From assembly GCA_963705305.1 (NCBI GenBank), contig OY970067.1:3552001-3616000 (forward strand): a stretch of 64,000 nt of DNA, read 5' to 3'. Positions 6,244 through 25,389 of the stretch are shown here, piece by piece. Source of the DNA: an uncultured Methylomirabilota bacterium. Its GTDB lineage: Bacteria > Methylomirabilota > Methylomirabilia > Methylomirabilales > 2-02-FULL-66-22. A program made the translations under genes and the position numbers. The notes beneath the pieces are model-generated. The model was given only the letters and a program-made list of their open reading frames with translations. It made no database searches and was not told the origin of the DNA. The first letter of the stretch is position 1; every line of letters starts with the position of its first letter.

Positions 6244-6342
6244 TTCGTGCGACCGAAGCAGGGATCGACCCTCGCCCGCCGGGCCACCGAAGCCTGCTTC
6301 ACAGGACGCCAACGCTCGACGCAAGGTTCACCCCAAGAGGGA

Positions 6343-6606
6343 CACTGGATTTGTGGCTTCATTACATGGCCAATGAAGGCCTTGTGGTGACGTGGGTGCC
6401 CGACCCGTTGGCGATCCGCATCAGTCTCCTCCAAATCGACAATTCGCCTCAATCCGTGCTTCCACACCGCCTAGCTCGCGCCGTCACGTCATCGCTTGTC
6501 TCTTGACGTTCCTCCGACTACGGTAGCGGGGCCTGCGGTCCGCAAGGGTGATTAGCTCAGTGGTCTTGAGTCACTGGATTTGTGATTTCACTACATGGCC
6601 AATGAA
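6343..6606. repeat. Two-copy 35-bp direct repeat (6343-6377 and 6572-6606)
   Basis: CACTGGATTTGTGnnTTCAnTACATGGCCAATGAA, 32/35 identical. Confidence 0.85.
6546..6564 (+). other. 5' fragment of a tRNA-Val-like gene (possible att remnant)
   Basis: GGGTGATTAGCTCAGTGGT matches the acceptor/D-arm start of tRNA-Val(UAC); no anticodon or T arm follows. Confidence 0.5.
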
Positions 6607-6639
6607 CTACCCCGCGGCTTGCCGCGGGGTAGTTCATTG
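6600..6639. repeat. Perfect 40-bp palindrome resembling an IS200/IS605-type end or REP-like element
   Basis: CAATGAACTACCCCGCGGC-TT-GCCGCGGGGTAGTTCATTG, 19-bp arms. Confidence 0.75.
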
Positions 6640-6702
6640 AGGACGGAGCCAATCCTCTTACCTCTATAGTGCGGAGTCTGATACAGTTCTATCCAATGAC
6701 AC

Positions 6703-6740
6703 TTGACAAAAATGGAATATATTATAACATATAACATATA
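6703..6740 (+). promoter_or_regulatory. Sigma70-type promoter with overlapping candidate GntR operator
   Basis: TTGACA (6703) - 16 bp - TAACAT (6725) in an AT-rich patch; tandem ATAACAT repeats overlap the -10. Confidence 0.6.
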
Positions 6741-6782
6741 CGAAATTAATTTTAACAGTTCCGATCCAAGTCTTTATCGTTC

Positions 6783-7553
6783 ATGGGTATGGAAGCAGCC
6801 GCTACTCCAGCAATAGGCTCATGGAGTCTAGCCTTGGAACTGATGAGTTCATTTGAATCAACAGGATACGCCACAAATGCGAAAGACGATGGAGGAGAGG
6901 AAACCTACGCTTCCCTCTCTGAAATAACCTACCGGAGGATTCGCCGGTCGATCCTTCGCGGCGAGTTTCCGCCTGGCGCGAGTATTACCGAGGCCGAGTT
7001 GGCCAGCAGATTCCACGTCAGCAAAACGCCGGTCCGGGAAGCGTTGCGCCGCTTGGGACAGGAGGGGTTGATCGTCGCAGTCCCCCATCGCGGCGCCAAG
7101 GTGGCGGGGCTCACGCGGGCAGACCTTGAGGAGATCTACCTCATGCGGAGTCGCCTGGAGAGCTTGGCGGCCCGGCTCGCGGCGGAGCGACTTACGGCGG
7201 AAGACGCGGCAGAATTTCAGTCGATTCTTGCCGAATTGCAGGCGCAGACGGCCGCCGGCAATACCGACGCCATCCGTCGGCTCAACGTCACCCTGCATGA
7301 GCAGATCTGGCGCACTAGCCGGAGCCAGCGCCTGGCCCAAACGCTCTCGAATCTCCAGGATTACATCGAGATGTCTCGGGCCACAAAGCTCTCGGTGCCC
7401 CGAGGGAGCGAGCTTCTGTTCGAGGAGAACGCGCGTATCGTTCAGGCCATCCTGGCCAAAGACCCGGACCGAGCAGAACAGGCAATGATCCAGCATATCG
7501 CCTATGTGCTAGGCGAGCTTCGCAGCGGGAATCCGTCAGCTTCGGAGGGCTAG
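6783..7553 (+). CDS. GntR family transcriptional regulator (FCD C-terminal domain)
   Basis: HTH EAELASRFHVSKTPVREALRRL plus helical FCD domain; exact start uncertain. Confidence 0.9.
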   Translation: MGMEAAATPAIGSWSLALELMSSFESTGYATNAKDDGGEETYASLSEITYRRIRRSILRGEFPPGASITEAELASRFHVSKTPVREALRRLGQEGLIVAVPHRGAKVAGLTRADLEEIYLMRSRLESLAARLAAERLTAEDAAEFQSILAELQAQTAAGNTDAIRRLNVTLHEQIWRTSRSQRLAQTLSNLQDYIEMSRATKLSVPRGSELLFEENARIVQAILAKDPDRAEQAMIQHIAYVLGELRSGNPSASEG

Positions 7554-7557
7554 TCCC

Positions 7558-8907
7558 GTGCCACAACACATTCAGGTTGTGCACTACATCAACCAGTTTT
7601 TCGCGGGGATCGGCGGGGAGGCGGTGGCGAACACGCCCGTGGAGCTGCGGCCGGGACCGGTGGGGCCGGGCCGGCTCCTCCAGGATGCGCTCGGGGCAGC
7701 AGCGCACGTCGCGGCCACGATCGTCTGCGGCGACAACTTCTTCAACGACGAACGGGAGCGCGCCTCTGCACGGGTCCGCGAGATCGTCCGTGAGGTGAAG
7801 CCGGCCATCGTGATTGCGGGGCCAGCGTTCGAGGCGGGGCGCTACGGGGTGGCCTGCACCGAGGTGTGCGCGATCGCCCAAAGCGAGGGGATCCCCGCGC
7901 TGACGGCGATGCACCCTGAGAACCCGGGGGTGGCCCTCCACCGCCAGGACGTGACGATCCTCCCCACGGGAAAGAGCCCCGTCGAGATGCCCACGGCGGT
8001 TCAGCGGCTGGCGCGCCTCGGCCTTCGCCTCGCGCACGGGGAAACACTGGGACCTGCAGAGGTCGAGGGTTACCTGCCGCACGGCATCCGCCGGCTCGGC
8101 CGGCGCGAGCGGCCCGGGTACCTGCGCGCGGTGGAGATGCTCGTCGCGAAGCTCGCCAATCAGCCGTTCCAGAGCGAGGTGCCGTACCAGGCGCCCGAGG
8201 CGGTCTCGCCGGCCGCGCCGGTGCGAGATCTGCGCACAGCCTCGATCGCCCTCGTCACCACCGGCGGCCTCGTCCCAAAGGGCAACCCGGAGAAGCAGAC
8301 ATCGGGCAACCCGCAACGGTTCTACGGCTACCCGGTGGAGCGGCTCGAGCGGATGCGGCCCGGCGATTGGGAGGCGTACCACGCGGGCTACTTCACGCAC
8401 ATCGTGGATGCGAACCCGGACTATGTCCTGCCACTCGGCTTCCTGCGCGAGCTCGAGGCGGCCGGCCTGATTGGCGGGATCTCCCCGAAGGTCTACACCC
8501 TGCCCGGCGTGAGCACCCCGGTGGCGAGGTCGCGAGGGCTCGGCCTCGGCATCGCGGAGGAGCTGCGGAAGGCCAACGCGGGGGGCTGCATCCTCGTCTC
8601 GACCTGAGGGACGTGCAATCGTTGCGGGGCAACGATCGCCAAGGAAGTCGAGCGGGTCGGCATCCCCGTGGCCATGATTTCGGCCATCTACGACCTGGCG
8701 CTCACCACCGGGGCGAGCCGGGTCGTCCGGGGCTGCCGGATTGAGCATGTGTGCGGCAATCCCGAGCTGGGGCCGGAAAAGGATCATGCCTACGGCCTCC
8801 AGATCGTCCGGACGGCCCTGCGGGCCCTGCAGACCCCCGTGGAGCGCCCGACGCTCTTCGATCCGCTGAAGGACGAGGTCTCGAACGAGGTGCGCCATGA
8901 GGCTTGA
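7558..8907 (+). CDS. grdB: Glycine/sarcosine/betaine reductase complex selenoprotein B; Sec at TGA 8605-8607
   Basis: HYINQFFAGIGGE, ICGDNFF, GPAFEAGRYG; reading through TGA gives LVST-U-GTCNRCGATIAKEVER, joining ORFs 7558-8607 and 8668-8907 in one frame. Confidence 0.93.
8618..8636 (+). promoter_or_regulatory. SECIS-like hairpin of grdB
   Basis: ATCGTTGC-GGG-GCAACGAT, perfect 8-bp stem starting at nt +11 after the TGA. Confidence 0.8.
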
Positions 8908-10207
8908 ACTGGGCACGTTTCCCGTCCGCGAGGTTGCATTTGGTCCTGAGACCCGGTATCACAGCGGGATGCTGGAGATCGATCGCGCTCGCGTGCTGGG
9001 CGCGGTGCGCGAGGATCCCCGGGTCCGGTCCGCAGACTTGGAGCTGGCGCGGCCCGGCGAGTCCGTCCGCATCTGGCCTGTCCGGGATGTGATCGAGCCC
9101 CGTGTCAAGGTCCAGGGGCCTGGGGTCGCCTACCCCGGCGTGTGCGGGCGAGCCGTCGGCGTCGTCGGTCAGGGACGCACCCACCGGCTCGCGGGCGTCG
9201 GCGTGGTGGAAGTCTCGAATGTCAACTGGCACGACGCGGGCGGCGACTTCGTCGACCTCTACCTGGACATGTCCGGCCCGTGGGCAGAGCTCCTGCCGCT
9301 GGCCAAGCTGCAGAACGTCTGCCTGGTGGTCGAACCCGACCCCGCGCTCTCCATCGAAGCCCAGAATGACGCGGTCCACAACGCCGCCCTGGTGGTTTCC
9401 GACCGCCTGGCTGAGAGCACACGCGCACTCGAGCCGCCCGAACTGCAGGTCCTCGACCTCGAGGCCCGCACGAATCCGGCCCTGCCCAGCGTGGTCTACA
9501 TCTGGTGCCTCCATTCCCCACAGGGGATGTCGAATGCTCTGAACACGTTCTGCACGGCGACCTACGGGCTCACGCGGCTCACGCCGCCATGGGTGCTCCA
9601 CCCCAACGAGGTGGTGGATGGCGCGATCAACGGCCCGTACCGCACGTCGTTCGCCACATCCTGGACCGTGGTCAACAATCCGCTCTTCCTGGAGCTGTAT
9701 CGCCGGCACGGCGTCGACTTCAACTTCCGGGCCGTGCTCGCGTTCCGGACGGAGTGGACCACCCAGCGGGAGAAGGACCTGATGGCCGAGCAGGCGGCGA
9801 AAACGGCCGAGCTGCTGGGGGCGCAGGGGGCGGTGGTCACCTGGGACGCGGGCGGCAACGAGTTCATCGAGGTGATCCACACGGTGCGCGCCTGCGAGCG
9901 CCGGGGGATCAAGACCGTGTTCCTGACCAGCGAAGATTCGCCGGAGGGCGGGGCGCCCACCCTGCTCGAGCCCTGTCCCGAGGCGGACGCGATCGTCACC
10001 ACCGGCTTTTTCAGCACCTCCGTGATGGATCTCGGGCTCCTCCCGGCTGTCCAGCGGGTCATCGGCAATCCGCTGAAGGTCCGCGGGCGCATGCGGGACG
10101 GGGCGATCCCGGAGGCCGGCGCCGCACAGACGGCAACTGCTCTCGCGCCGCCCGGCCGCTACGACGACCACTACGGCTTTGGCACCCTCACCTCTTTCAT
10201 GTACTAG
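8897..10207 (+). CDS. Reductase component B companion subunit (GrdE/GrdI family), atypical
   Basis: MRLEL start, PGESVRI.PVRDVIEPRVK, HPNEVVDGA, NNP; overlaps the grdB stop. Confidence 0.88.
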   Translation: MRLELGTFPVREVAFGPETRYHSGMLEIDRARVLGAVREDPRVRSADLELARPGESVRIWPVRDVIEPRVKVQGPGVAYPGVCGRAVGVVGQGRTHRLAGVGVVEVSNVNWHDAGGDFVDLYLDMSGPWAELLPLAKLQNVCLVVEPDPALSIEAQNDAVHNAALVVSDRLAESTRALEPPELQVLDLEARTNPALPSVVYIWCLHSPQGMSNALNTFCTATYGLTRLTPPWVLHPNEVVDGAINGPYRTSFATSWTVVNNPLFLELYRRHGVDFNFRAVLAFRTEWTTQREKDLMAEQAAKTAELLGAQGAVVTWDAGGNEFIEVIHTVRACERRGIKTVFLTSEDSPEGGAPTLLEPCPEADAIVTTGFFSTSVMDLGLLPAVQRVIGNPLKVRGRMRDGAIPEAGAAQTATALAPPGRYDDHYGFGTLTSFMY

Positions 10208-10237
10208 GGAGCCGTCCGAAGAGCGGAGGTAGTGACG

Positions 10238-11692
10238 ATGAGCCCCACGGGTGGGCAGCCGGTCATTCGGGGCGCCCGGTTCTTCCTGGCGCACGCGCCG
10301 GGCCTCGTCCGCTACGGCTCGAAGCCCCGCCGGGAACTCGCCAAGGATGCCGCCCTCCTCGACCGCCTTACCCCGCACCTCCGCGCGTGGGATGGGGCGG
10401 CCGCGTACCCGCCGAACCAGGCATTCCTCGGCGGCATCTACCCGGACGACCTCGCCGCCATCCCCCGCCCCTGGTTTACAGGGGATCGCGCCCCTCTCCG
10501 CCGCCACCCCCACGGCGAGCTCATGCCGGAGGAGGAGTTCTACGGCCTCCTGAAGCTCTGCGACTGCTTCGATCTCCTGGCACTCGAGACCTCGTTCGCT
10601 GCCGAGGCAGCCACCGCGCTGGCGGCGCACCCCGATCTGCGGCCCGAGGAATCGGCTCGGGTCGCGGGAGGCGCGACCCTCGGGAGCATCGAAGCCGAAG
10701 TGGGGGGCCCGCAGCAGACGCTCCCGCTCTTCCTCCGCTCGGGCCGACTGGTGGGGTGCATCCGGCGGGGGCACGAGGAGGATACCGCCCTCACCGCCGA
10801 TCTCCTGCTCGAGAACCTCGCGTGCAAGGCGACCGCCACGATGGCCCTCCGGCAACTCCTCCGCGAGCAGGTGGTGGATCCGGGCCGCATTGAATACGTC
10901 ATCAACTGCGGCGAGGAGGCCGTGGGGGACCGGTACCAGCGGGGCGGCGGAAACCTCGCGAAAGCGGTTGCCGAGATGTGCGGGTGTGGGGAGGCAACCG
11001 GCTCGGACATCAAAGCGTTCTGCTGCGCACCGGTGCACGCCTTGGTCCTAGCTGGGGCGCTGGTTGCCGCGGGCGTCTACAGGCAGGTGGCCGTGGTCGC
11101 GGGCTGCTCCCTGGCGAAGCTCGGGATGAAATTCCAGGGGCACCTCGCCAAGGGACAGCCTGTGCTCGAAGACGTGCTCGCAGGGGCCGCAGCGCTCGTG
11201 AGCCAGGACGACGGATGTTCACCCGTGCTGCGCCTTGACTCGGTCGGCCGCCACCCCGTGCAGGCCGAGGGCGCCCAGCAGCGCATCCTCGAGGCCCTCG
11301 TGGAAGAGCCCCTCCGGCGGCTGGGGCTCCGGTTCGGCGACGTCGACAAGTACGCCACGGAGCTGCACAACCCGGAGGTCACGGAGCCGTCCGGCAGCGG
11401 CAATGTCCCCCTGCTGAACTACCGCCTCATCGCCGCTATGGCGCTCCGCGCCAAAGAACTCGATCGCGCCGGCCTCTCGGACTTCGTCCAGCGGCACGGG
11501 CTTCCGGGCTACGCGCCGACGCAGGGACACATCGCGTCGGCCATCCCCTTTCTCGGCCACGCATACGACCGGCTGACCGTCGGCACGATGACGCGAGCCA
11601 TGTTCCTGGCCAAAGGGAGCCTCTTCCTGGGCCGGATGACACAGATGTCCGACGGGCTGTCATTCGTTCTTGAGCGCAATCCCCGGGCCTGA
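10238..11692 (+). CDS. grdC: Glycine/sarcosine/betaine reductase component C beta subunit
   Basis: YPPNQAFLG, LLENLACKA, GEEAVGDRYQRGGGN, KLGMK, ELHNPEVTEP, GYAPTQGHI, KGSLFLGRMT. Confidence 0.92.
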   Translation: MSPTGGQPVIRGARFFLAHAPGLVRYGSKPRRELAKDAALLDRLTPHLRAWDGAAAYPPNQAFLGGIYPDDLAAIPRPWFTGDRAPLRRHPHGELMPEEEFYGLLKLCDCFDLLALETSFAAEAATALAAHPDLRPEESARVAGGATLGSIEAEVGGPQQTLPLFLRSGRLVGCIRRGHEEDTALTADLLLENLACKATATMALRQLLREQVVDPGRIEYVINCGEEAVGDRYQRGGGNLAKAVAEMCGCGEATGSDIKAFCCAPVHALVLAGALVAAGVYRQVAVVAGCSLAKLGMKFQGHLAKGQPVLEDVLAGAAALVSQDDGCSPVLRLDSVGRHPVQAEGAQQRILEALVEEPLRRLGLRFGDVDKYATELHNPEVTEPSGSGNVPLLNYRLIAAMALRAKELDRAGLSDFVQRHGLPGYAPTQGHIASAIPFLGHAYDRLTVGTMTRAMFLAKGSLFLGRMTQMSDGLSFVLERNPRA

Positions 11693-11728
11693 CGCACGGG
11701 ATCGAGAGGCAGAAGGAGGTCGACCGCG

Positions 11729-12178
11729 ATGGAGCTTCGAGGTAAGAAGGTGATCGCGATTGGCGAGCGCGACGGGGTGGCCGGCTCGGCCATCGCCGCG
11801 TGCGCCAAGAGCGCAGGGGCTAGTGTCGTCTACGAGATGACGCACTGCTTCGTCTGAACGGCCGCCGGCGCACTTGACCTGGAGGGTCAAGAGGCAATCA
11901 AAACCACCGTGGCCAGGGTGGGCGCCGAGAACCTCATCGTCCTGCTAGGTACACCGAACCCAGAGAGCAGCGAGCTGTTCGCCGTCACGCTCAGCGAAGG
12001 CGACCCGACGTGGGCGGGACCGCTCGCGGGTGTTCGCCTGGGGCTCCCAGTCTTCCACATCACCGAGCCAGACATCCGAGGCCAGATTCCAGAGGACGTG
12101 TACGAGGCGCAAGTCGGCTTGGCTGAGGCCGTGCTCGACACCGACGCCATTGCCGGCGTGCTCCGCGCCCGACGGTGA
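11729..12178 (+). CDS. grdA: Glycine/sarcosine/betaine reductase selenoprotein A; Sec43 at TGA 11855-11857
   Basis: [27 protein letters not shown]...[14 protein letters not shown]...[16 protein letters not shown] in one frame (149 aa). Confidence 0.93.
11873..11891 (+). promoter_or_regulatory. SECIS-like hairpin of grdA
   Basis: CTTGACC-TGGAG-GGTCAAG stem-loop starting at nt +16 after the TGA. Confidence 0.7.
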
Positions 12179-12234
12179 ATCGTCCTGGGCGAAGGGACGG
12201 CGGGAGCCCCTCGCCATATGGAGAGGAGGAGGAC

Positions 12235-13251
12235 ATGGAGCGCCACAGTTCGCTTGGAATCCTACTGATCGCCGTCGGCATTCTGCTCGTGTCCGGGTTG
12301 ACGGCGGGACCCGCGGCTGAGGCCCAGGCGAAGAAGATCGTGATGAAGTTCGGCACCGTCTTACCCAACGGCAGCGGCGAGGACCAGGGTGCCCACAAGT
12401 TCGCGGAGCTGGTGGCGCAGAAGACGGGCGAGCAGGCCGAAGTGCAGGTGTTCCCGAACTCGCAGCTCGGCGATGCGAAGAGCCAGCTCCAGGCGGTGGC
12501 CGTCGGCGGCCAGGACTTCTTCATGGACGGCATCGGCTGGTACGTCAGCTTCGACAAGGACTGGACCCCCTTCGCGCTGTGCTTCGCCATTCAGGACCGG
12601 GACGCGTTGCTCCGGGTGCTGGATTCCCCGGTCGGCCGCGAGGTGGAAAGCCGCCTGCTGAAGAAGGGGATCCGCGTAGCAGCGCACAACTGGTGGAAAG
12701 GAGAGCGCTCGCTGATTTCGCGGAAGCCGGTCCGGAGCCTCGCCGAGGCCCAGAACATTATGATGCGCGTGCCGAGCAAGGCGTTTTTCCTCGCCTGGCA
12801 AGGGATCGGGACCCGGCCGACCATCACCGCGACCTCCGAGATATTCACCGCCCTCCAGCAGGGTGTCGTCGACGCCGCCGAGAGCCCCATCATGGACATG
12901 TATACGCTGAAGCTCTACGAACCGGCGCCGCATATCACGCTGACCCGCCACCTGCAGAACATGGCTGCGGTGTCGGTGAGCGAGAAACTGTACGAGACCT
13001 GGCCCCCGAACGTGCAGAAGGCGGTGCTCGAGGCGGCCCGCGAGGCGGGCGAGGCTGAATACGGGTACGAGCTCGCCCACACGAAAGATGCCGTGGCCCA
13101 GATGAAGGCCGCGGGCGTGGCCGTTTACGAGCCCCTGCCGTCGCGGGAAGCGTGGTTCGCGAAGGTGGCGAACCTCCCGGAGAAACTCGAGGCGCAGGGG
13201 GAGTGGAGCAAGGGGCTCTGGGCCCGCATCCAGGCGGCGATCAAGCAGTGA
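12235..13251 (+). CDS. dctP: TRAP transporter substrate-binding protein
   Basis: Signal peptide, VFPNSQLG, MRVP, EIFTALQQGVVDAAES; GAGGAGG RBS. Confidence 0.9.
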   Translation: MERHSSLGILLIAVGILLVSGLTAGPAAEAQAKKIVMKFGTVLPNGSGEDQGAHKFAELVAQKTGEQAEVQVFPNSQLGDAKSQLQAVAVGGQDFFMDGIGWYVSFDKDWTPFALCFAIQDRDALLRVLDSPVGREVESRLLKKGIRVAAHNWWKGERSLISRKPVRSLAEAQNIMMRVPSKAFFLAWQGIGTRPTITATSEIFTALQQGVVDAAESPIMDMYTLKLYEPAPHITLTRHLQNMAAVSVSEKLYETWPPNVQKAVLEAAREAGEAEYGYELAHTKDAVAQMKAAGVAVYEPLPSREAWFAKVANLPEKLEAQGEWSKGLWARIQAAIKQ

Positions 13252-13409
13252 CTTGCGGCGCGTGGGGGGTCTGGACCGGGTGCTCCTCAGAGGCATCGCC
13301 GATCGGTGAGCGGCCTGTCTCGGGCAGCGTGAGAGTGCTCCGACTTCACCCACCGCGCGCACCTTTTCGGCCAGAGAAGCCAGCGACTCATCTGTAGGAG
13401 ATATGACAG

Positions 13410-13955
13410 GTGGCGCGTGCAGGGCGGTACCTGCGGTGGGTGGGCGGCAACCTGGAAGAGATCGCTGGCTGCGCCTTCTTCGTCGGCATGGTCGGCAGCG
13501 TGAGCATCGGCGTCCTCTTCCGGTACGGGATCCGCCGCCCGCTCCTCTGGACGGAGGATGTCTCCACGCTCTGCTTCGTCTGGACGGTATTCCTCGGCAC
13601 AGCCGCGACGGCCAAGCACCGCACCTACCTCGCCGTCGATGCACTCATCGTGCACTTCCCGACGCCGCTTCAGCGTGCCATAGCGCTGCTCATCGACCTG
13701 TTGACGGTGGCACTCACGGGGGCCATCGCCGTTTTGGGGGTCCAGTACGCGCTGAGCCAGCAGGGGGTCACCACCGAGGCACTCGAGCTCCCGACAATGT
13801 GGTACGCTTTCGCGGTCCCCGTGTGGGGTGTGCTCGCGTGCGGCTACGCCGTCCGCGATTTCGTCCGGCACCTTCGGACCCCAGCGCTCGGGCCCTCCCC
13901 TGCTCGGGGGGGTCCGCTCCCCGGCTTCGTGAGCAGCGGCGGAGCGGGCCGATGA
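13410..13955 (+). CDS. dctQ: TRAP transporter small permease
   Basis: Four TM segments, FRY...WTED...FVWTVFLG. Confidence 0.85.
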   Translation: MARAGRYLRWVGGNLEEIAGCAFFVGMVGSVSIGVLFRYGIRRPLLWTEDVSTLCFVWTVFLGTAATAKHRTYLAVDALIVHFPTPLQRAIALLIDLLTVALTGAIAVLGVQYALSQQGVTTEALELPTMWYAFAVPVWGVLACGYAVRDFVRHLRTPALGPSPARGGPLPGFVSSGGAGR

Positions 13956-15232
13956 ATGCGCTGTGGCTGGTCTTGGCCTTCCTGCTGTTTCTCCTCCTCG
14001 GCACCCCCGTCGGTTACGCCCTGGGTTTTGCGTCGTTCTTCTACCTGTTATTTCTCAATCACCTCCCGCTCATCATGGTGGCGCAGCGGCTCACAGCCTC
14101 CCTTGACAACTTCGTGCTCATGGCCGTGCCCTTCTTCATCCTGGCCGGCAACCTCATGAACACGGGGGGCATCACCGACCGGCTGGTGCGGTTCGCGATG
14201 AACACGGTCGGGCACGTTCGCGGTGGCCTCGCGCACACCACCATCGTCACCAACATGATCATGGCGGGGATGTCCGGATCCGCGGTGGCCGATTGCGCGG
14301 GGACCGGGATCGTACTCATTCCCGCGATGCAGAAGGAGGGGTATCCCAGCGAGGTAGCCGCCGGTGTCACGGCCTCAGCGGCCACCATTGGGCCGATCAT
14401 CCCCCCCAGCATTCCCATGGTGCTCTACGGCGCCATGGCGGGCGCCTCGATCACGAAGCTCTTCGTGGCCGGGTTCCTGCCGGGCGTGCTCATGGGCCTC
14501 GCCCTGATGACGATGGTGTACCTACGGGCGAACCGCTGGGGCCTCGGGGCTCACCGGCGGGCGTCTTTTGCCGAGTGGCTTCGGGCCCTCTGGCACGCGC
14601 TCCTGCCCCTTGGGCTCCCGGGCGTGATCATGGGCGGGATCCTGTTTGGGGTCTTCACGCCAACGGAGGCGGCGGCCATTGCCGCAGTGTACGCGGCCGC
14701 GTTGGGGACGTTCGTGTACCACGAGATGGGCGCCAAGTCGACGCTCCTGGTGGCCCGGGACTCGCTGTACCGCACCGCGACCGTGCTGTTCATTTTTGCA
14801 AACGCGGTGGTCTTCTCTTGGCTCATCACGGTCGAGCGGGTGCCGGACCTGGCCAGCAACTGGGTGCTGGGGGTGACGCATAGCCCCGCCTTGGTGCTCC
14901 TCATCATCAATGTGTTCCTACTCATCGCGGGGTGCCTCCTCGACCCCACACCGATCTTGCTAATTACGGTGCCCGTTCTGGCGCCGCTCGCCTCGAAGGT
15001 GGGCATCGATCTCGTGCACTTCGGGGTCGTCATGGTCCTCAACTTAATGATCGGGCTCCTCATGCCGCCCATGGGACTCAACCTCTACATTGTTTCCGAC
15101 ATCTCGCACATCCCCTATTCGCGGGCCCTGCGCGGGACCGCACCGTTCGTCGTCCCGCTCCTGATCGTGCTGGCCCTGATCACGTACGTCCCCCAGGTGG
15201 TCATGTGGCTGCCGGGACTGCTTTTGAAATGA
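13952..15232 (+). CDS. dctM: TRAP transporter large permease
   Basis: MAVPFFILAGNLM, MSGSAVAD, IIPPSIPM, FTPTEA; ATGA overlap with dctQ. Confidence 0.92.
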   Translation: MNALWLVLAFLLFLLLGTPVGYALGFASFFYLLFLNHLPLIMVAQRLTASLDNFVLMAVPFFILAGNLMNTGGITDRLVRFAMNTVGHVRGGLAHTTIVTNMIMAGMSGSAVADCAGTGIVLIPAMQKEGYPSEVAAGVTASAATIGPIIPPSIPMVLYGAMAGASITKLFVAGFLPGVLMGLALMTMVYLRANRWGLGAHRRASFAEWLRALWHALLPLGLPGVIMGGILFGVFTPTEAAAIAAVYAAALGTFVYHEMGAKSTLLVARDSLYRTATVLFIFANAVVFSWLITVERVPDLASNWVLGVTHSPALVLLIINVFLLIAGCLLDPTPILLITVPVLAPLASKVGIDLVHFGVVMVLNLMIGLLMPPMGLNLYIVSDISHIPYSRALRGTAPFVVPLLIVLALITYVPQVVMWLPGLLLK

Positions 15233-15244
15233 GGAGGTGAAGCG

Positions 15245-15505
15245 ATGGCCCACGTCACGGTCTACACGAACTTCGGGTGAGGGGGGTGCCACCGAGCGAT
15301 GGAGTTTCTGTCGCAGAAGTCCGTCCCGTTCACCGAGAAGAACATCGGGCGCGACCCGGAGGCCCGGCGAGAGCTCCTGGCTATGGGACTGACGTCGCTC
15401 CCCGTGATCGTCATCGGGAATCAGAAGCTCTCGGGATTTGATCCTGCGCGCATTGCCGCCGCGCTGGCGGAGTCGGCAGAGAAAAGTCACTCCAAAGAAG
15501 CGTAA
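15245..15505 (+). CDS. Glutaredoxin/NrdH-like selenoprotein; Sec12 at TGA 15278-15280 (UGGC motif)
   Basis: GAGGAGGT RBS; MAHVTVYTNFG-U-GGCHRAMEFL...SLPVIVIG...SGFDP; hairpin GCGATGGA-GTT-TCTGTCGC at 15296-15314. Confidence 0.85.
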
Positions 15506-15844
15506 CGCATACTTCGTACTGTTGCTCATGAAGGGGATCGTGAAGTTGGGAGCTGTAGCGCGTGTGGGAGCGTAGAAAAGGGGAGAGAACACCAGAATCC
15601 TGTGTGACGCCGTGGCCTCCGAGCGCCTCACCACAGACGAAAGCGGTATAGGTCGTGGCGGAGTGTTCGCCCTTGCGGTCTGACGTTTGGGCGTGGGGTG
15701 ACGGAGGGCCCTGTGATTTCATTCACTATCGGTCCCGAAAGCGTGCGAAAGGAGGTGGTGCCTGCGAAGATGAGCGCGGCGAATCCGCTCTAGGCGTTGG
15801 CGTGACTCCTTCAATGTCTGCCACTTATCGGGAGGTACGACTCA

Positions 15845-16849
15845 ATGGGATCCCAGGCGCCGCATCGAAACTCCATTTTGCGCATAGCGTTGGCTGCCGC
15901 GGTAGTCGTCCTAGTTGCGGCCGCCGGTCCCGCCTGGGCCGCCGCCAAGGTCATTCGGCTGGGGGACAGCGGGACCGAGCAGAACCCGCAGTTTCGGGCT
16001 CATCAGTTCTTGGCCAAACGGATCTCTGAGCTGACGAACGGTCAAATTGAAGTCAAAATCTTCATGAATGCGCAGCTCGGCGGCCACACGCAGATGAACG
16101 AACAGGTGGCCGAGGGTGCCCTGGAACTCGCCAAGGCCCCCAGCGCCTTCATGAGCACCTATGACAAACGGATGTCCATCTGGAGCCTGCCGTACTCCTT
16201 CTCAAGCCTCGAAAAACTCTACGCTGCGGAGGACGGGAGGCTTGGGCAGGCGTATGCGGCAATTGGCGAGAAGTACGGCTTCAAACTGCTCTCCTTCTAT
16301 CACGCGGGCACCCGGGACATCTACAACAAGAAAGGCCCCATCAGAACGTCCGATGACCTGAAAAATCTCCACATCCGCCTGCGGGTCATGCCGGACCCGG
16401 TAATGATTGACGCCCTGAACGCGATGGGAGCCCAGGCGACGCCGATGGAGGCGAACGAAGTCTACAACGGCATCCAGCAGGGCGTCATTGACGGGGCCGA
16501 GAACTCCATCACATGGTACCTCACCATGAAGCACTTTGAGGTGGCCCCCTATTTTTCGCTCACGCATCATTTCTACAGCGTCGACACCATCGTCGTGAGC
16601 ATGCGCTGGTTCGAGCAACAGACGCCGGAAATTCAGCGAGCGTTCGTCCAGGCAGGGAAAGAGACCACCTTGTTTGAGCGGAGGGCCTGGGCCGAGGATG
16701 AGCAGAAGAGCTACGCGAAGGCCAAGGCTGCCGGCATCAAGATCAACGAGGTCGACATCGCATCCTTCCAGAAGGCGGTGAAGCCGGTGCTGGAGAAGTA
16801 CGGGCCGTCCCTCGGAGACCTGTACACGATCCTCAAGGAATACCAGTAG
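15845..16849 (+). CDS. dctP: TRAP transporter substrate-binding protein (second system)
   Basis: Signal peptide, NAQLGG, LRVM, EVYNGIQQGVIDGAENS. Confidence 0.9.
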   Translation: MGSQAPHRNSILRIALAAAVVVLVAAAGPAWAAAKVIRLGDSGTEQNPQFRAHQFLAKRISELTNGQIEVKIFMNAQLGGHTQMNEQVAEGALELAKAPSAFMSTYDKRMSIWSLPYSFSSLEKLYAAEDGRLGQAYAAIGEKYGFKLLSFYHAGTRDIYNKKGPIRTSDDLKNLHIRLRVMPDPVMIDALNAMGAQATPMEANEVYNGIQQGVIDGAENSITWYLTMKHFEVAPYFSLTHHFYSVDTIVVSMRWFEQQTPEIQRAFVQAGKETTLFERRAWAEDEQKSYAKAKAAGIKINEVDIASFQKAVKPVLEKYGPSLGDLYTILKEYQ

Positions 16850-16875
16850 AAGCGATCCCCCTGCCAACCTCCGTC

Positions 16876-17076
16876 CTAGCCGTTACACAAAGGTGTTGAT
16901 AACGGTCGGCGTTTCGCTAGTAACGGCATGAATTGGTTGACCGAATCGGAACGCCTTGTCGGGGAAGAAATCTTCCTCGATGTCAGCTCAATCCGAAAAG
17001 GACGGAATGCGCTGTAACCACAGAGGAATCGCGCCTATTGACAAGCGAATCTTCAACACCTTTGTGTAGCGGGTAG
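16876..17076. mobile_element. 201-bp MITE with IS4/IS50-like ends
   Basis: 24-bp TIRs CTAGCCGTTACACAAAGGTGTTGA and (reverse complement) CTACCCGCTACACAAAGGTGTTGA, 22/24; 9-bp TSD ACCTCCGTC at 16867-16875 and 17077-17085. Confidence 0.85.
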
Positions 17077-17579
17077 ACCTCCGTCCGGGGCTGGGGAGGG
17101 GGCTCGACACCGAATGGATGATTGCCGGCCACCCCGCGAGCTTGGCCAGCGGGCCGAGAGAGGTTAGATAGAGGCAATTCCTATGGTCTAGGCGATCATG
17201 CGTCGGTGCAAAGGGAAGATGCCGGAACCTGAAGCTGTCGTTCAGGAGCTTAGAAGGAGGGGGGTGGTCCGGAGTTCTTTTTCGCTTGGCTGCCGCGGGC
17301 GCATAACCAGGGGCTGCCCAATGCAAGCCCGGAAGTTATGTGCCCGCGGCATGCACGACTTGAGGCTTCCCTGGTGAAGAGTGCGTCAAAATGCGGGGTC
17401 CACATTCATGCCCAGTAACCAATTGAATGTGCGCAGAAGGATGGCTTTGTTTGCCCAGTGTGAATCGTTCATCCGCAGTGCCTTTTCCATGGCCCTGGAC
17501 GCATTTTCAATATGGGATTGCGTGAGAGAATTGGCATGCCCACGGTAGTAGTTCCGTTGAAAAATGGGGGACTTCTGAC

Positions 17580-18107
17580 GTGACAGCGACCACGTACCCC
17601 GACGAGCGGGCGCAACTCTCGTGCCTCGATCGAATCAACCGGATGGTCGCCCTGGCAGAAAACGTGCTGGGTATCGCCCTGGTAGTCACAGTGGTGATCG
17701 TGGTGAGCATGCAGGTCGGGTTTCGGTACTTCCTGAACCAGCCCCTCTCCTGGTCTGGTGAGACCGCCACGTACCTCCTGGTCTGGACGACGTTTCTCGG
17801 GATGGCTGTCGCTCAGCGAGAAAGAGCCCACGTGGCCATGCAGGTGCTGCCCACGATGCCCCGATTGGCTCAGCGGACGGTGGATTGGATCTGCTGGCTG
17901 GCTACTTTTGGCATGTTTCTGTCGCTGGGTCTGGGGGGACTCGAGCTTGCGTTCTTGCACCACATCCAGCGGTCACCCGCCACAGGTCTGCCGATTTGGG
18001 TTGTCTACACCGCAGTCCCCGTGGGCGGCGCCTTGGGGATCTGGCACACCGTCCAGGATCTGCCGGGGCTCATCCGCGGAGCGGAAAGGCCGAAGGGATG
18101 GCACTAG
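17580..18107 (+). CDS. dctQ: TRAP transporter small permease
   Basis: QVGFRYFLNQPLSWSGE...VWTTFLG...HVAM; four TM segments. Confidence 0.87.
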   Translation: MTATTYPDERAQLSCLDRINRMVALAENVLGIALVVTVVIVVSMQVGFRYFLNQPLSWSGETATYLLVWTTFLGMAVAQRERAHVAMQVLPTMPRLAQRTVDWICWLATFGMFLSLGLGGLELAFLHHIQRSPATGLPIWVVYTAVPVGGALGIWHTVQDLPGLIRGAERPKGWH

Positions 18108-19396
18108 TCCTCACGATCGGATTTCTTGCGCTCCTGCTGCTGGGCGCGCCCATCCTGGCGGCCATGAGCTTGGGGACATGGCTGTCGCTTGTGACATACA
18201 GCCGGCCTTCCTACCTGCTGGCACAAACCGCCTTCTACGGGATCAGTTCTTTCACCCTGCTCGCCATCCCGCTGTTCGTGCTGGCCGGCGAGATTATGGA
18301 CAAGGGCGGCATCTCCGCGCGCTTGGCGCGATTCGTCATCATGCTGGTGGGCTGGCTCCCCGGGGGCTTGGGCATCTCGGTGGTGCTCACCACCATGCTT
18401 TTCTCCGGGATCTCGGGCTCCGTCAACGCCGACGCAGCCGCGATCGGCTCGGTAATGCTGCCCATGATGCACGAGGCGGGGTACCGAAAAGAGTGGGCGT
18501 CCTCGATTGTGGCCGCGTCGGCCGGGACTGGCATCCTAATCCCGCCCTCGATCACCATGATCGTACTGGGGACCATTGCCAATTTGTCCATTAAGCAGCT
18601 GTTCCTAGCCTCCCTGCTTCCGGCCGCCCTCATCGGCCTCTCCAAGGCGGTCGTTATCTGGTACAAAGCCAGAATGGGGTGGGAGCGGAGCCAAGAACGC
18701 GTGGTCTTTTCCTGGCGGCAGATGCTGTCGGCGACGCTGGAGGCGATTCCCGCCCTCATTGCGCCCGGAATTATCATGGGCGGAATCCTCTCAGGCATCT
18801 TCACGGCGACAGAGGCCGCTGCGGTGGCGGTCCTGTATGCAATCCTCGTCAGCGTCGTACTCTATGGTGAGATTACCTGGCAGAAGATGGGAAGCATGCT
18901 GGTCGCGACCGTCCGCCTGAGCGGGGTGGTCATCGGGCTTGTCGGAGCGGCCTCGGCCATCGCCTATGTCATGGCATATACGGAAGCCTCGAACCAATTG
19001 GCCGCGCTCGCGAGCGGTGTCATCGACCACTACCTGCTGTTCATCACGCTGCTCACGGCCCTCTTCTGGGTGCTCGGCGCCATGCTGGACGGCATCCCAG
19101 CCCTCGTGATCCTGATCCCGGTGTTCATGCCTCTCGCGGAGAAAGCGGGGATGCACCCTATTCACTTCGCGATCTTCTCTCTTGCGGTGTTTGGCATCTC
19201 ACTGGTGACCCCCCCACTGGGGACGGCCTGCTTCGTGGTGACCTCCTTGGCTGGGATAGAGATGAAACGGCTCATCTGGCCGATGCTTCCTTTCCTGGCC
19301 ATCATGTTCGGTACAATCCTAATCCTGTCATACGTTCCCTGGTTCTCCCTTGCACTGCCCAAGCTTTGGGGTGGATTGATCGTAATTCCGCAATGA
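18098..19396 (+). CDS. dctM: TRAP transporter large permease
   Basis: LAIPLFVLAGEIM, ISGSVNAD, LIPPSI, FTATEA; start at MALVL. Confidence 0.9.
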   Translation: MALVLTIGFLALLLLGAPILAAMSLGTWLSLVTYSRPSYLLAQTAFYGISSFTLLAIPLFVLAGEIMDKGGISARLARFVIMLVGWLPGGLGISVVLTTMLFSGISGSVNADAAAIGSVMLPMMHEAGYRKEWASSIVAASAGTGILIPPSITMIVLGTIANLSIKQLFLASLLPAALIGLSKAVVIWYKARMGWERSQERVVFSWRQMLSATLEAIPALIAPGIIMGGILSGIFTATEAAAVAVLYAILVSVVLYGEITWQKMGSMLVATVRLSGVVIGLVGAASAIAYVMAYTEASNQLAALASGVIDHYLLFITLLTALFWVLGAMLDGIPALVILIPVFMPLAEKAGMHPIHFAIFSLAVFGISLVTPPLGTACFVVTSLAGIEMKRLIWPMLPFLAIMFGTILILSYVPWFSLALPKLWGGLIVIPQ

Positions 19397-23869: not shown

Positions 23870-25389
23870 CCCTAATCTCCGGCTAAGCGGTGGCCAGCCG
23901 GGCGATCTTGCGCCGCGCCCGGACGAGCAAGGCGTGCTGCAGGGCGGCCGAGAGCCGCAAGAGCGTCCGTCGGGCATGCGCGACGACCTTCCCGACGGTG
24001 TTGAACAGCAGGAACCGGAGACGCTTCGGCCGGGCGGTCCGGAGATCTCCGGGTAAGGTCAACCGCTTGAGCGCGGTGAGCAGGTTGTAGGTGAGCACGT
24101 TCAGCCGGAACCAGGCGGCGTTCGCCCCGAACTTCCCACTGGGCAGCGCGGCGGCCGCCAGCTCGGTCTTGAGGACGTGATGGGTGTGCTCGATGGTCCC
24201 TGCTTTCTCCCGGTGCCACCGGAGGATCGTGAGCCCATCCTCCGGCCGATTGGTGACCACGGCGAAGTACTGCACGCTACTCCCGTCGGCGAAGAGGCTC
24301 CCCTGGCGTCGCTGGATACGCACCGCGAGGTAGCGGCGAACGCACGGCCGCGCCTTCCGGTGATCGCCATCCTCGGGGACGTAGGGGACTTCGGCCCAGG
24401 CCCGGATCGCCTCGGGCTCCTCCCGCTCGAGCTGCCAGGCGGCCGCGGGGAGGCGCCGGATCTCGGCCTGGAGCTGCGCGGACATATCGGCGCTAATCGC
24501 GTAGGCGATTTTCTTCTCCTCGCACCAGCGGAGGACCTCCGTCTCGTAGAGGGCGCTGTCGGCCCGCAGGGAGATGCGGTCCACGCCCTGGGGCAAGTTG
24601 GCCACCGCCTGTTCGAGGACGCGCACGTTGCCGCACCCGGCGGGCACCTGGCCATCGCGGAACTGGTCGTGCACGATGACATCGTGCTCGGCCCAGAGGA
24701 CCACGACGGGCTGGTAGCCCCGGGTCCCGTCGTAGGCCACGGTCGCCGCGTCCTTGTGGCTCTCGACGAGCGTCGCGTCCACATCCAGGGTGGCCGTCGC
24801 CGCCCGGGCCCCGCGCTGGACGCCCGCGACCAGCGTCCGGTTCGCCTGTCCGAGGCCCGCCAAGGGGGCGGACTCCAGGGGGACCGTGGCCGCGGGCCCG
24901 GCCACCCAGAGCGGCCCGTCCTCCACGTGGAAGGCCTCGAGGAAGTCCCGGACCGTGGTCGCGGCCGGCAGGGGGTAGCCGAGCAGCGTGGCCAGGGCCT
25001 GATCCTCCCGGAGCGTCGTGAGGTCCTGGCAGCGGTCCCCGCCGCTCGTCCACAACGCGACGAGACTCTCCACGAGCTGCGAGGGGGGTAATCCGCGCTG
25101 CCGCTGCTTGACCGCAACGTGGGTGTCGACGGCCTGGGCCACCCCGAGCTGGCGGAACAGCTCGATCACGAGCGGGACCCCGGCCCGGCCCGTGACCAGC
25201 GTGGGGTCGATCGCGTCATCGATCTCGAACGGCAACCGGGGCGAGGTGTCGGGCATCGCTCTCCTCCTTGTGGTGTTTGCACCCACTGGGTGAAACCAAG
25301 CAAGGCCGATGCCAACCCCGCGGGCCGCGCGCACTGCGGGCCGCTGCGTGATTCGCGATCCCCCTCAACTTCTTAGCCGGAGATTAGGG
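23870..25389 (-). mobile_element. IS1380 family insertion sequence, apparently intact
   Basis: Perfect 18-bp TIR CCCTAATCTCCGGCTAAG; 5-bp TSD GCCGC (23865-23869 and 25390-25394). Confidence 0.92.
23883..25256 (-). CDS. IS1380 family DDE transposase
   Basis: TLDVDATL, GYQP, LRADSALY, IEHTHHVLK, LPSGKFGANAAW; AGGAGG RBS; stop lies inside the TIR. Confidence 0.92.
   Translation of the reverse strand: MPDTSPRLPFEIDDAIDPTLVTGRAGVPLVIELFRQLGVAQAVDTHVAVKQRQRGLPPSQLVESLVALWTSGGDRCQDLTTLREDQALATLLGYPLPAATTVRDFLEAFHVEDGPLWVAGPAATVPLESAPLAGLGQANRTLVAGVQRGARAATATLDVDATLVESHKDAATVAYDGTRGYQPVVVLWAEHDVIVHDQFRDGQVPAGCGNVRVLEQAVANLPQGVDRISLRADSALYETEVLRWCEEKKIAYAISADMSAQLQAEIRRLPAAAWQLEREEPEAIRAWAEVPYVPEDGDHRKARPCVRRYLAVRIQRRQGSLFADGSSVQYFAVVTNRPEDGLTILRWHREKAGTIEHTHHVLKTELAAAALPSGKFGANAAWFRLNVLTYNLLTALKRLTLPGDLRTARPKRLRFLLFNTVGKVVAHARRTLLRLSAALQHALLVRARRKIARLATA

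Follow-up and report, generated by a model that had tools for sequence, protein, structure and literature searches.

Organization of the operon

The window analyzed here is a 64,000-nucleotide stretch of the genome of an uncultured Methylomirabilota bacterium (GenBank assembly GCA_963705305.1, contig OY970067.1, positions 3,552,001 to 3,616,000 of the forward strand). It carries an operon of nine genes at 6783-15505 on the + strand, which are co-oriented and closely packed when TGA is read as selenocysteine (Sec). In order, these genes encode an FCD-type GntR regulator, a GrdB-like and a GrdE-like protein (together a putative protein B of the Grd reductase type), GrdC, GrdA, the three components of a tripartite ATP-independent periplasmic (TRAP) transporter, and a glutaredoxin/NrdH-like redoxin (Table 1). 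Enzymes of the Grd type are textbook examples of Stickland metabolism in strict anaerobes. Protein and gene identities were called from Pfam and NCBIfam profile scores relative to the cut-offs of the models. A Pfam match was obtained for every one of the nine proteins, and these matches continue across the TGAs. The intergenic gaps range from -11 to +56 nt, with the exception of approximately 158 nt before dctQ.

A scan of positions 6300 to 16000 revealed four promoter-like sites, where shuffled sequences lead one to expect 0.9. All four lie at 6696-6780, upstream of gntR, and none was found inside the operon. This position upstream of gntR alone was taken to speak for a single operon. No riboswitch or other leader was detected upstream by Rfam search. 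The host genome is complete in a single contig (98.9% complete) and has a G+C content of 66.1%. An earlier interpretation of this DNA from its letters and reading frames, hereafter the sequence-only reading, had described nine co-oriented, mostly close-set genes behind a TTGACA promoter in a GC-rich host; gene calls, promoter scan and base composition bear out this description. The locus is a real, well-preserved selenoprotein operon.

Table 1. Features of the operon in window coordinates. Bit scores are given with the model cut-off where available.
Feature	Position	Strand	Description
Promoter-like cluster, AT-rich spacer	6696..6780	+	TTGACA 6703-6708, 16-nt spacer, TAACAT 6725-6730; consensus matches alone
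Imperfect palindrome, candidate operator	6712-6737		Overlaps the TTGACA/TAACAT promoter-like sites
FCD-type GntR regulator	6783..7553	+	Pfam GntR 65.9 bits, FCD 90.6 bits; start may lie further downstream
GrdB-like selenoprotein B	7558..8907	+	Sec350 = TGA 8605-8607, STUGTCNRCG; Pfam GRDB (PF07355) 378 bits vs 22
SECIS after the GrdB Sec codon	8608..8645	+	Rfam RF01990 SECIS_4, 42.2 bits vs gathering score 38, E 5.5e-7
GrdE-like subunit	8897..10207	+	Pfam Gly_reductase 266 bits; GPYRT in place of SGN-C-VSAC
GrdC, protein C beta subunit, short form	10232..11692	+	NCBIfam reduct_C_beta (NF040746) 617 bits vs 450
GrdA selenoprotein A	11729..12178	+	Sec43 = TGA 11855-11857, CFVU; reduct_selen_A (NF040748) 188.6 bits vs 130
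DctP, TRAP solute-binding protein	12235..13251	+	Pfam DctP 194 bits; reading frame open from 12175
DctQ, TRAP small membrane subunit	13410..13955	+	Pfam DctQ 94 bits
DctM, TRAP large membrane subunit	13952..15232	+	Pfam DctM 405 bits, TIGR00786 449 bits
Glutaredoxin/NrdH-like redoxin, 86 residues	15245..15505	+	Sec12 = TGA 15278-15280, GUGGC; Pfam Glutaredoxin 49 bits

Three in-frame TGAs are credible selenocysteine codons

Under genetic code table 11, the GrdB-like, GrdA and redoxin genes are each split at a TGA that lies in a redox motif, which reproduces the outcome of the reading-frame track behind the sequence-only reading. The hairpin with a G in its loop that had been described behind each of these codons was also recovered at all three. 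Each has an 8-bp stem and a G-containing triloop and starts 10-15 nt downstream of the TGA. In the GrdB-like gene, the core stem (8618-8625/8629-8636, loop GGG) falls within the match to SECIS_4, a bacterial-type selenocysteine insertion element model; the hairpins of grdA and of the redoxin gene are located at 11873-11891 (loop GGA) and 15296-15314 (loop GUU), respectively.

The genome encodes the decoding machinery that such codons need, as the sequence-only reading had proposed to verify: selA (577 bits), selB (313 bits) with an adjoining tRNA-Sec, and selD (342 bits), whose own reading frame is interrupted by one TGA. Across 80 related genome loci (L012-L091), TGA is used in 76/76 homologous GrdB-type UGxCxxCG motifs and in all 48 homologous GrdA CFVU motifs. 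At the position aligned to that of the redoxin, a paralogue of the same genome (GUGSC) and locus L174 (GUGPC) have Sec, and locus L146 has Cys. On this sequence evidence, each of the three TGAs is a credible Sec codon; the calls for GrdA and the redoxin rest on the hairpins and on homologs with Sec or Cys at the aligned position, and that for GrdB also on the SECIS_4 match.

Elsewhere, the genome holds a second glutaredoxin-like selenoprotein (with the GUGSC motif) and a short protein resembling the C-terminal part of PrdB/GrdB (PAUGLC), at C1 about 1503380-1503625 and about 5538800-5539560.

The protein B pair lies apart from the characterized reductases

The GrdB-like protein belongs to the Grd/Prd selenoprotein B superfamily, as indicated by TIGR01918, PF07355 and a Sec residue in a UxxCxxC motif. 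TIGR01918, a subfamily model, is the only one of NCBIfam that it passes (400 bits vs 65.45). It scores below the cut-offs of the GrdF (417 vs 800), GrdB (TIGR01917, 362 vs 602.2) and GrdH (358 vs 775) models, and the GrdE-like protein likewise falls below those of GrdG (213 vs 780) and FarE (118 vs 675). No GrdI model was among the NCBIfam matches to the pair. GrdA and GrdC pass the cut-offs of their equivalog models, whereas the protein B pair fails every equivalog or exception cut-off.

The representatives of the family yielded no labeled references when scored with NCBIfam, as 0/108 reach the GrdG cut-off and no FarE was found at an E value of 1e-100 or better. References were therefore drawn from Desulfobacterota genomes: 401 were searched, of which 22 matched and six exceeded the GrdB cut-off, at 611-652 bits. 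The published GrdB and GrdF sequence motifs (Nobu et al. 2022, PMC9751293) match none of 68 clade rows, and the GrdB motif matches five Desulfobacterota control genes (eight rows). In the GrdB-like protein of the window, the shared N-terminal part of the GrdB motif alone fits, with E for [NF], and the parts AHGGxD, RV[IL]PxD and TxGNxTxV are missing.

A maximum-likelihood tree of 95 GrdB-type proteins was inferred by quick search with support from the Shimodaira-Hasegawa-like approximate likelihood ratio test (SH-aLRT), leaving out five rows from duplicate loci. The GrdB-like protein is placed in a six-row group (SH-aLRT 100) with proteins from Rokubacteria, Methylomirabilota and Acidoferrum. 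This group is nested in a clade of 74-79 rows (support 96-100), and a branch with a support of 100 parts the latter from the clade with glycine-type GrdB. As part of the phylogeny called for in the sequence-only reading, this tree separates the protein from glycine-type GrdB; the other classes could be set against it by model scores and motifs only. Judged by sequence, the protein B pair is outside every curated or characterized clade that could be compared.

The clade has features of its own. The Sec motif reads ATUG in 60/76 GrdB-type proteins and STUG in ten, including the window's. In the GrdE-like proteins, W60, W111, W232, W256, W287, W316, Y248, E105, D117 and D317 are conserved in the clade and do not occur in canonical GrdE; a His is also among the clade-specific conserved residues. 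These Trp, Tyr and acidic residues might suit a cationic leaving group, which is only a lead. The mean column identity among 21 clade members is 79%, a sequence signature of strong purifying conservation. Searches for solved structures related to GrdB, GrdE or GrdC gave none at an E value of 0.01 or better, and the ESM Atlas returned nothing beyond "Gly_reductase" clusters.

Neither the missing pyruvoyl cysteine nor the missing grdD is a hallmark of the operon

In canonical GrdE encoded beside a high-scoring GrdB, the processing site reads SGN-C-VSAC in 16/16 rows, including three library representatives. This Cys is residue 246 in P0221, close to the Cys242 of the literature. At this site, Cys occurs in none of 91 GrdE-type rows from related loci, and the GrdE-like protein, with GPYRT, is not a GrdE proprotein with a pyruvoyl-forming cysteine. 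The lack of this residue, on which the sequence-only reading had relied, is therefore confirmed as a fact but fails as a distinguishing trait: Cys is present in only 3/109 full-length sequences (the query and its nearest 108 representatives at the 50% identity level), and GrdI and FarE are also reported to be without processing cysteines (PMC10838667). By sequence, the GrdE-like protein belongs to the non-pyruvoyl majority of its family.

The same holds for grdD. None was found in the whole window genome, where the best match (24 bits vs 350) is PlsX-like and of a kind seen also in Escherichia coli. As a control, the search recovered grdD at 507-529 bits in three genomes, exactly between grdC and grdA. 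Absence from the genome had been correctly anticipated, but it does not set the operon apart, as grdD was also not found in 5/5 other genomes with the clade or in 7/10 glycine-type Desulfobacterota genomes, whose assemblies may be incomplete. These seven genomes (G216, G389, G148, G379, G212, G403 and G073; loci L200-L206 and L210) encode a glycine-type GrdB together with a Cys-bearing GrdE. Furthermore, three GrdC proteins linked to grdD carry a C-terminal tail of approximately 35 residues, which counts as one observation because the three are close kin. This tail is missing from the GrdC of the window and from 11 other GrdC proteins of loci without an adjacent grdD; the GrdC of L210 has the short form. 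A whole-genome search was done for five of the tail-less proteins and found no grdD.

Taken together, the sequences suggest that GrdD-independent glycine reductases exist, and loss of grdD is apparently a broader, undescribed feature of non-Firmicute Grd systems. Since grdD was not found in most of the non-Firmicute systems sampled, the standard model of acetyl release is called into question. The sequence-only reading thus appears to have overweighted the missing Cys and the missing grdD, and to have been right in placing the operon outside the characterized reductases. Its further statement that the operon contains no trx gene stands; a trxB gene is located elsewhere, at C1:5563431-5564330.

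Regulator, importer and redoxin form a wiring not met at related loci

The best NCBIfam match of the GntR regulator is phnR_burk, at 124 bits and under the cut-off of 271.5. A 61% identical GntR gene precedes grdB in one organism only (L022 and L164 represent the same locus). A shared operator was considered and rejected, as the palindrome of L164, TCCGGTATACCGGA, differs from that of the window.

For dctP, the ATG at 12235 is a likelier start than 12175, given a strong Shine-Dalgarno sequence upstream and a signal-peptide-like N-terminus. Deducing the DctP ligand from solved binding proteins was tried and rejected, because the nearest structure (4ovt, 120 bits) is too distant. In the alignment to 4ovt, the Arg of an "RVP" stretch is kept; in TRAP binding proteins, this Arg binds the carboxylate. 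The TRAP genes are enclosed by the operon, at 56 nt from grdA and 12 nt from the redoxin gene, and this position argues for their membership of the unit. A second TRAP system follows after a gap of 340 nt, at 15845-19396 (DctP 15845-16849, a DctQ-like frame around 17340-17880 and DctM 17885-19396). The DctP of this second system has a much closer match among solved binding proteins (4x8r, 178 bits) than the DctP of the operon.

The Pfam Glutaredoxin match of the redoxin covers residues 4-60, across the TGA. In NCBIfam, the protein scores 62.7 bits for the YruB family and 57.7 for NrdH, both under the cut-offs. A related redoxin directly follows grdA in two loci, L146 and L174. The sequence-only reading had counted a Sec-glutaredoxin as a difference from known systems, a point that does not survive, as glutaredoxins and thioredoxins are both listed as selenoprotein families (PMC1794560).

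To place the operon in context, 160 related loci (80 genome, 80 metagenome) were surveyed with flanks of up to 10 kb. The combination of TRAP, FCD-GntR and Sec-redoxin, which had been flagged as unusual, was not met in any of them; this wiring is unique among the related loci surveyed. Of 161 loci, the window copy is the only one joined both to a solute-binding protein of its own and to a regulator of the ligand-sensing kind. At L085 (Desulfocapsaceae), a different tripartite carboxylate importer (TctC/TctA) lies directly upstream of grdB, and this module is also flanked by a sigma-54 activator and a TrxB-like gene.

Distribution of the clade and origin of the operon

Relatives of the GrdE-like protein are numerous. 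Among the candidates scored, 1180 match at an E value of 1e-10 or better; an identity of 65% or more to the query is reached by each of the best 120, and by more than 120 clusters formed at 90% identity. The library of representatives contains 1119 matching proteins at an E value of 0.001 or better, with only two full-length clusters above 50% identity. The named loci belong to Dehalococcoidia/SAR202 and other Chloroflexota, Rokubacteria/Methylomirabilota, Entotheonella/Tectimicrobiota, Binatia, Acidobacteriota, Nitrospinota, Thermomicrobiales and Desulfocapsaceae; further records come from metagenome loci. The order grdB-grdE-(grdC-grdA) recurs in the clade, in contrast to grdE-grdB at glycine-type loci. 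Annotation pipelines (JGI) name the homologs glycine or sarcosine reductase. The four-gene core, presented by the sequence-only reading as new, is thus part of a widespread clade that already carries annotations.

Several loci deviate from the simple arrangement. Three loci of SAR202/Dehalococcoidia (L032, L039 and L044) have a single grdC-grdA pair with two to three divergent GrdB/GrdE pairs around it, a layout expected for several substrate-specific proteins B that share proteins A and C. L044 also contains a UGSC-family gene that is apparently split, possibly at a Sec codon. In two Rokubacteria loci, a gene for a DAO-family FAD oxidoreductase (the type of sarcosine, glycine and D-amino-acid oxidases) lies divergently upstream of grdB (L021:7314-8408 and L157:7344-8675); both loci also have a second GrdB/GrdE pair related to the glycine type. 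At the metagenome loci L145, L147, L155 and L160, grdB and grdE are located beside ftsQ-ftsA-ftsZ-pgeF (Cu-oxidase_4). Downstream sequence was scanned for L147 alone; here, two genes separate the pair from yggS and proC, and the flank contains neither grdC nor grdA.

The clade was found in none of 20 genomes of the same genus, one of which has a 36% identical paralogue. Among 40 relatives, there are three GrdE-like matches at 36-40% identity, including the one from the 20 same-genus genomes, and the best DctP match is 37% identical. The absence from the genus suggests horizontal acquisition, and the operon was probably acquired in this way.

Comparison with known systems

Glycine reductase (GrdA/B/C/D/E of Peptoclostridium acidaminophilum, Clostridium sticklandii and Desulfobacterota) resembles the system of the window in GrdA with its CFVU motif, in GrdC, in the UxxCxxC motif and in both Pfam families of protein B. 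It differs in the GrdB score, as Desulfobacterota GrdB reach 611-652 bits, and in the GrdB motif, which fails here. The pyruvoyl cysteine and grdD are absent from the window, the order of the protein B genes is reversed, and a gene for a Sec-glutaredoxin-like protein is present in the operon instead of trxA/trxB.

Sarcosine reductase (GrdF/GrdG) provides the best-scoring specific models. Both scores are far under their cut-offs, the GrdF motif fails, and there is no pyruvoyl-forming Cys. Betaine reductase (GrdH/GrdI) has an alpha subunit reported to be unprocessed and to lack cysteines (PMC10838667), and its chemistry operates without a Schiff base. GrdH was compared by model score only, and here the window protein is far below the cut-off. 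In addition, a BCCT transporter, OpuD, is described beside grdHI (PMC6716910), whereas the window has a TRAP importer.

FarB/FarE of Cloacibacillus porcorum MFA1 is a protein B of the Grd type whose substrate is a non-amine substituted acetate, and it works with a shared GrdA and protein C. Like the GrdE-like protein, FarE has no processing cysteines; unlike the window protein, which keeps UGTCNRC, FarB is reported to be without the CxxC after Sec (all PMC10838667). The FarE model score also separates the two.

The redoxin resembles the Sec-glutaredoxins and -thioredoxins of other grd operons in being small, in having Sec first in a CxxC-type motif and in being encoded with grd genes. It differs in its NrdH/YruB-like GUGGC motif, in scoring under the NCBIfam cut-offs and in its position after a transporter rather than beside trxB. 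In sum, the four core genes represent a new variant within a known enzyme type, and the wiring is what sets the operon apart.

A proposed reductive cleavage and its alternatives

We consider it somewhat probable that the locus is a functional, probably horizontally acquired Grd-family selenoenzyme operon whose protein B comes from a large clade apart from the characterized ones. The best reading of its chemistry, by analogy, would be a Grd-type reductive cleavage of a carboxylate X-CH2-COO- without Schiff-base activation. Gene content, Sec decoding capacity, clade placement, the missing Cys and grdD and the unique wiring are observed; all chemical steps and the type of substrate are inferred by analogy with the glycine, betaine and fluoroacetate reductases.

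DctPQM would bring in the carboxylate, and a substituted-acetate substrate taken up through the TRAP transporter, as put forward by the sequence-only reading, is consistent with the data. Sec350 of the GrdB-like protein would then attack the alpha-carbon and expel X. Because the GrdE-like protein cannot form a pyruvoyl group, there would be no Schiff-base activation, and X would have to leave in its own right, as an onium group (as in betaine) or as an anion (as in fluoroacetate). The carboxymethyl group would be handed to Sec43 of GrdA, and GrdC would turn Se-carboxymethyl-GrdA into an acetyl thioester and oxidized GrdA with a Cys40-Sec43 selenenylsulfide. The Sec-containing NrdH/glutaredoxin-like redoxin of the operon would re-reduce GrdA and would itself be reduced by the genomic thioredoxin reductase and NADPH. 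In the absence of GrdD, the acetyl group would probably leave as acetate or acetyl-CoA, and not by the GrdD route to acetyl phosphate. The FCD-GntR regulator would probably sense the substrate and control the single promoter.

A tentative extension, which we regard as possible and rather doubtful, is that the clade represents a widespread fourth or fifth Grd specificity class, independent of pyruvoyl and GrdD, that is found in soil, ocean and sponges in uncultured and largely aerobic or microaerobic phyla (Rokubacteria, SAR202, Entotheonella, Binatia and Nitrospinota). Its substrate would be a carboxylate different from glycine, sarcosine, betaine and fluoroacetate, such as an acetate substituted with a sulfonium, arsonium, guanidino or sulfo group, and its product would be acetate or acetyl-CoA in place of acetyl phosphate. 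To our knowledge, only four Grd substrates are known. The window genome has three heme-copper oxidase genes, so that the enzyme would operate in an organism that is probably able to respire oxygen.

Several points weigh against these proposals. None of the analyses run gave evidence at the level of the substrate, and what becomes of the acetyl group in the absence of GrdD is a matter of conjecture. An acetate kinase is present (358 bits) and no PTA_PTB-family gene was found in the window genome (98.9% complete); an acetate kinase without Pta would fit acetyl phosphate being made after all. The distance from the characterized GrdF, GrdH, GrdI and FarB is expressed in NCBIfam scores and motifs, not in a tree. 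As 60-nt folds, the three hairpins are no better than shuffled sequences (z = -0.7, -1.5 and -0.5), and those of grdA and the redoxin gene have no Rfam match. The setting of some soil metagenome copies, near ftsZ-pgeF and yggS-proC, looks more housekeeping than catabolic. The neighborhood survey confirmed the unusual wiring of the window but yielded no conserved partner: the flanks of 21 related loci (150 open reading frames of 12 loci, 24 between grd genes, and 56 of nine closer loci) have nothing in common beyond grdC and grdA and offer no substrate clue. Finally, no DctP, DctQ or DctM homolog was found at any of the 160 related loci at an E value of 1e-5 or better, and the window genome encodes approximately 42 DctP-like candidates, which makes chance adjacency likelier here than in most genomes.

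The last two findings, together with the second TRAP system nearby in a TRAP-rich genome, speak for a functional Grd module beside TRAP genes that are unrelated neighbors, an explanation that fits any substrate assignment. We give it a minor share of the probability, because the TRAP genes sit between grdA and the redoxin gene with gaps of 56 and 12 nt and no internal promoter-like site. The lack of the clade in the same-genus genomes (0/20) and a DctP identity of at most 37% in the 40 relatives also make the block look as if it was acquired or assembled as a unit.

An ordinary betaine reductase, that is, a divergent GrdH/GrdI orthologue that converts glycine betaine to trimethylamine and an acetyl unit, is an unlikely alternative of similar standing. 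The unprocessed, cysteine-free GrdI reported in PMC10838667 resembles the GrdE-like protein, the clade-conserved aromatic and acidic residues might form a cation-pi site for an onium group, and glycine betaine is ubiquitous in the soil, sea and sponge habitats of the clade. On the other hand, GrdH is the lowest of the three protein B models (358 bits against a cut-off of 775; GrdF, 417), and no representative outside the query's own clusters is more than approximately 53% identical to the GrdE-like protein. The flanks of the 21 surveyed loci revealed neither a BCCT nor an OpuA-type betaine transporter, and the importer of the operon is a TRAP system. We know of no betaine-importing TRAP system.

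We consider it improbable that the enzyme is a reductase for glycine or sarcosine in which something other than a GrdE-derived pyruvoyl activates the amine substrate. GrdF is indeed the best specific model (417 bits), the JGI names of the homologs point the same way, and the DAO-family oxidase genes of L021 and L157 and a creatinase/prolidase-like gene upstream in L073 would suit such substrates. Another carbonyl source, at the serine of STUG, has also been speculated upon (PMC10838667). Yet the clade mostly has ATUG (60/76, against 10/76 with STUG), the GrdB and GrdF motifs both fail in the substrate region, all specific cut-offs are missed, and Cys occurs at the processing site in 0/91 rows.

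That the TGAs are true stops in decaying remnants, as the splitting under table 11 and the weak hairpin z-scores might imply, can practically be dismissed in view of family matches across each TGA, Sec kept in 76/76 and 48/48 motifs, the SECIS_4 match with complete Sec machinery, and a Cys-form redoxin aligned at the Sec position.

The preferred reading, a functional Grd-family operon with a protein B from a separate clade, has consequences beyond this genome. The clade is abundant in soil, groundwater, ocean and sponge metagenomes, and the labels glycine and sarcosine reductase probably give the wrong identity to a step in the turnover of carbon, nitrogen or sulfur in a number of major uncultured phyla. 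Given the heme-copper oxidases, the genome bears on the working of Grd-type selenoenzymes in oxygen-respiring organisms. With DctP and GntR, the operon offers two soluble ligand-binding proteins for direct ligand screening, and thereby a route to the substrate of the whole clade. In the open-access papers and preprints searched, no work was found that links Grd reductases with Rokubacteria, SAR202 or Entotheonella or that discusses the clade; the full tree and table of Nobu et al. may hold members.

Other features

The genes neighboring ackA include no informative gene. A transposase gene of the DDE_Tnp_1_4 type (483 amino acids) is located at 23883-25334, 8 kb downstream of the operon, and an equally long copy with near-identical Pfam scores lies beside ackA (C1:5064156-5065604); by sequence, it is probably a multicopy insertion sequence element. 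The DNA that separates the upstream GNAT gene from the promoter region contains, at 6600-6639, a perfect inverted repeat (19 bp, loop of 2 nt) that may be a terminator or a repeat element.

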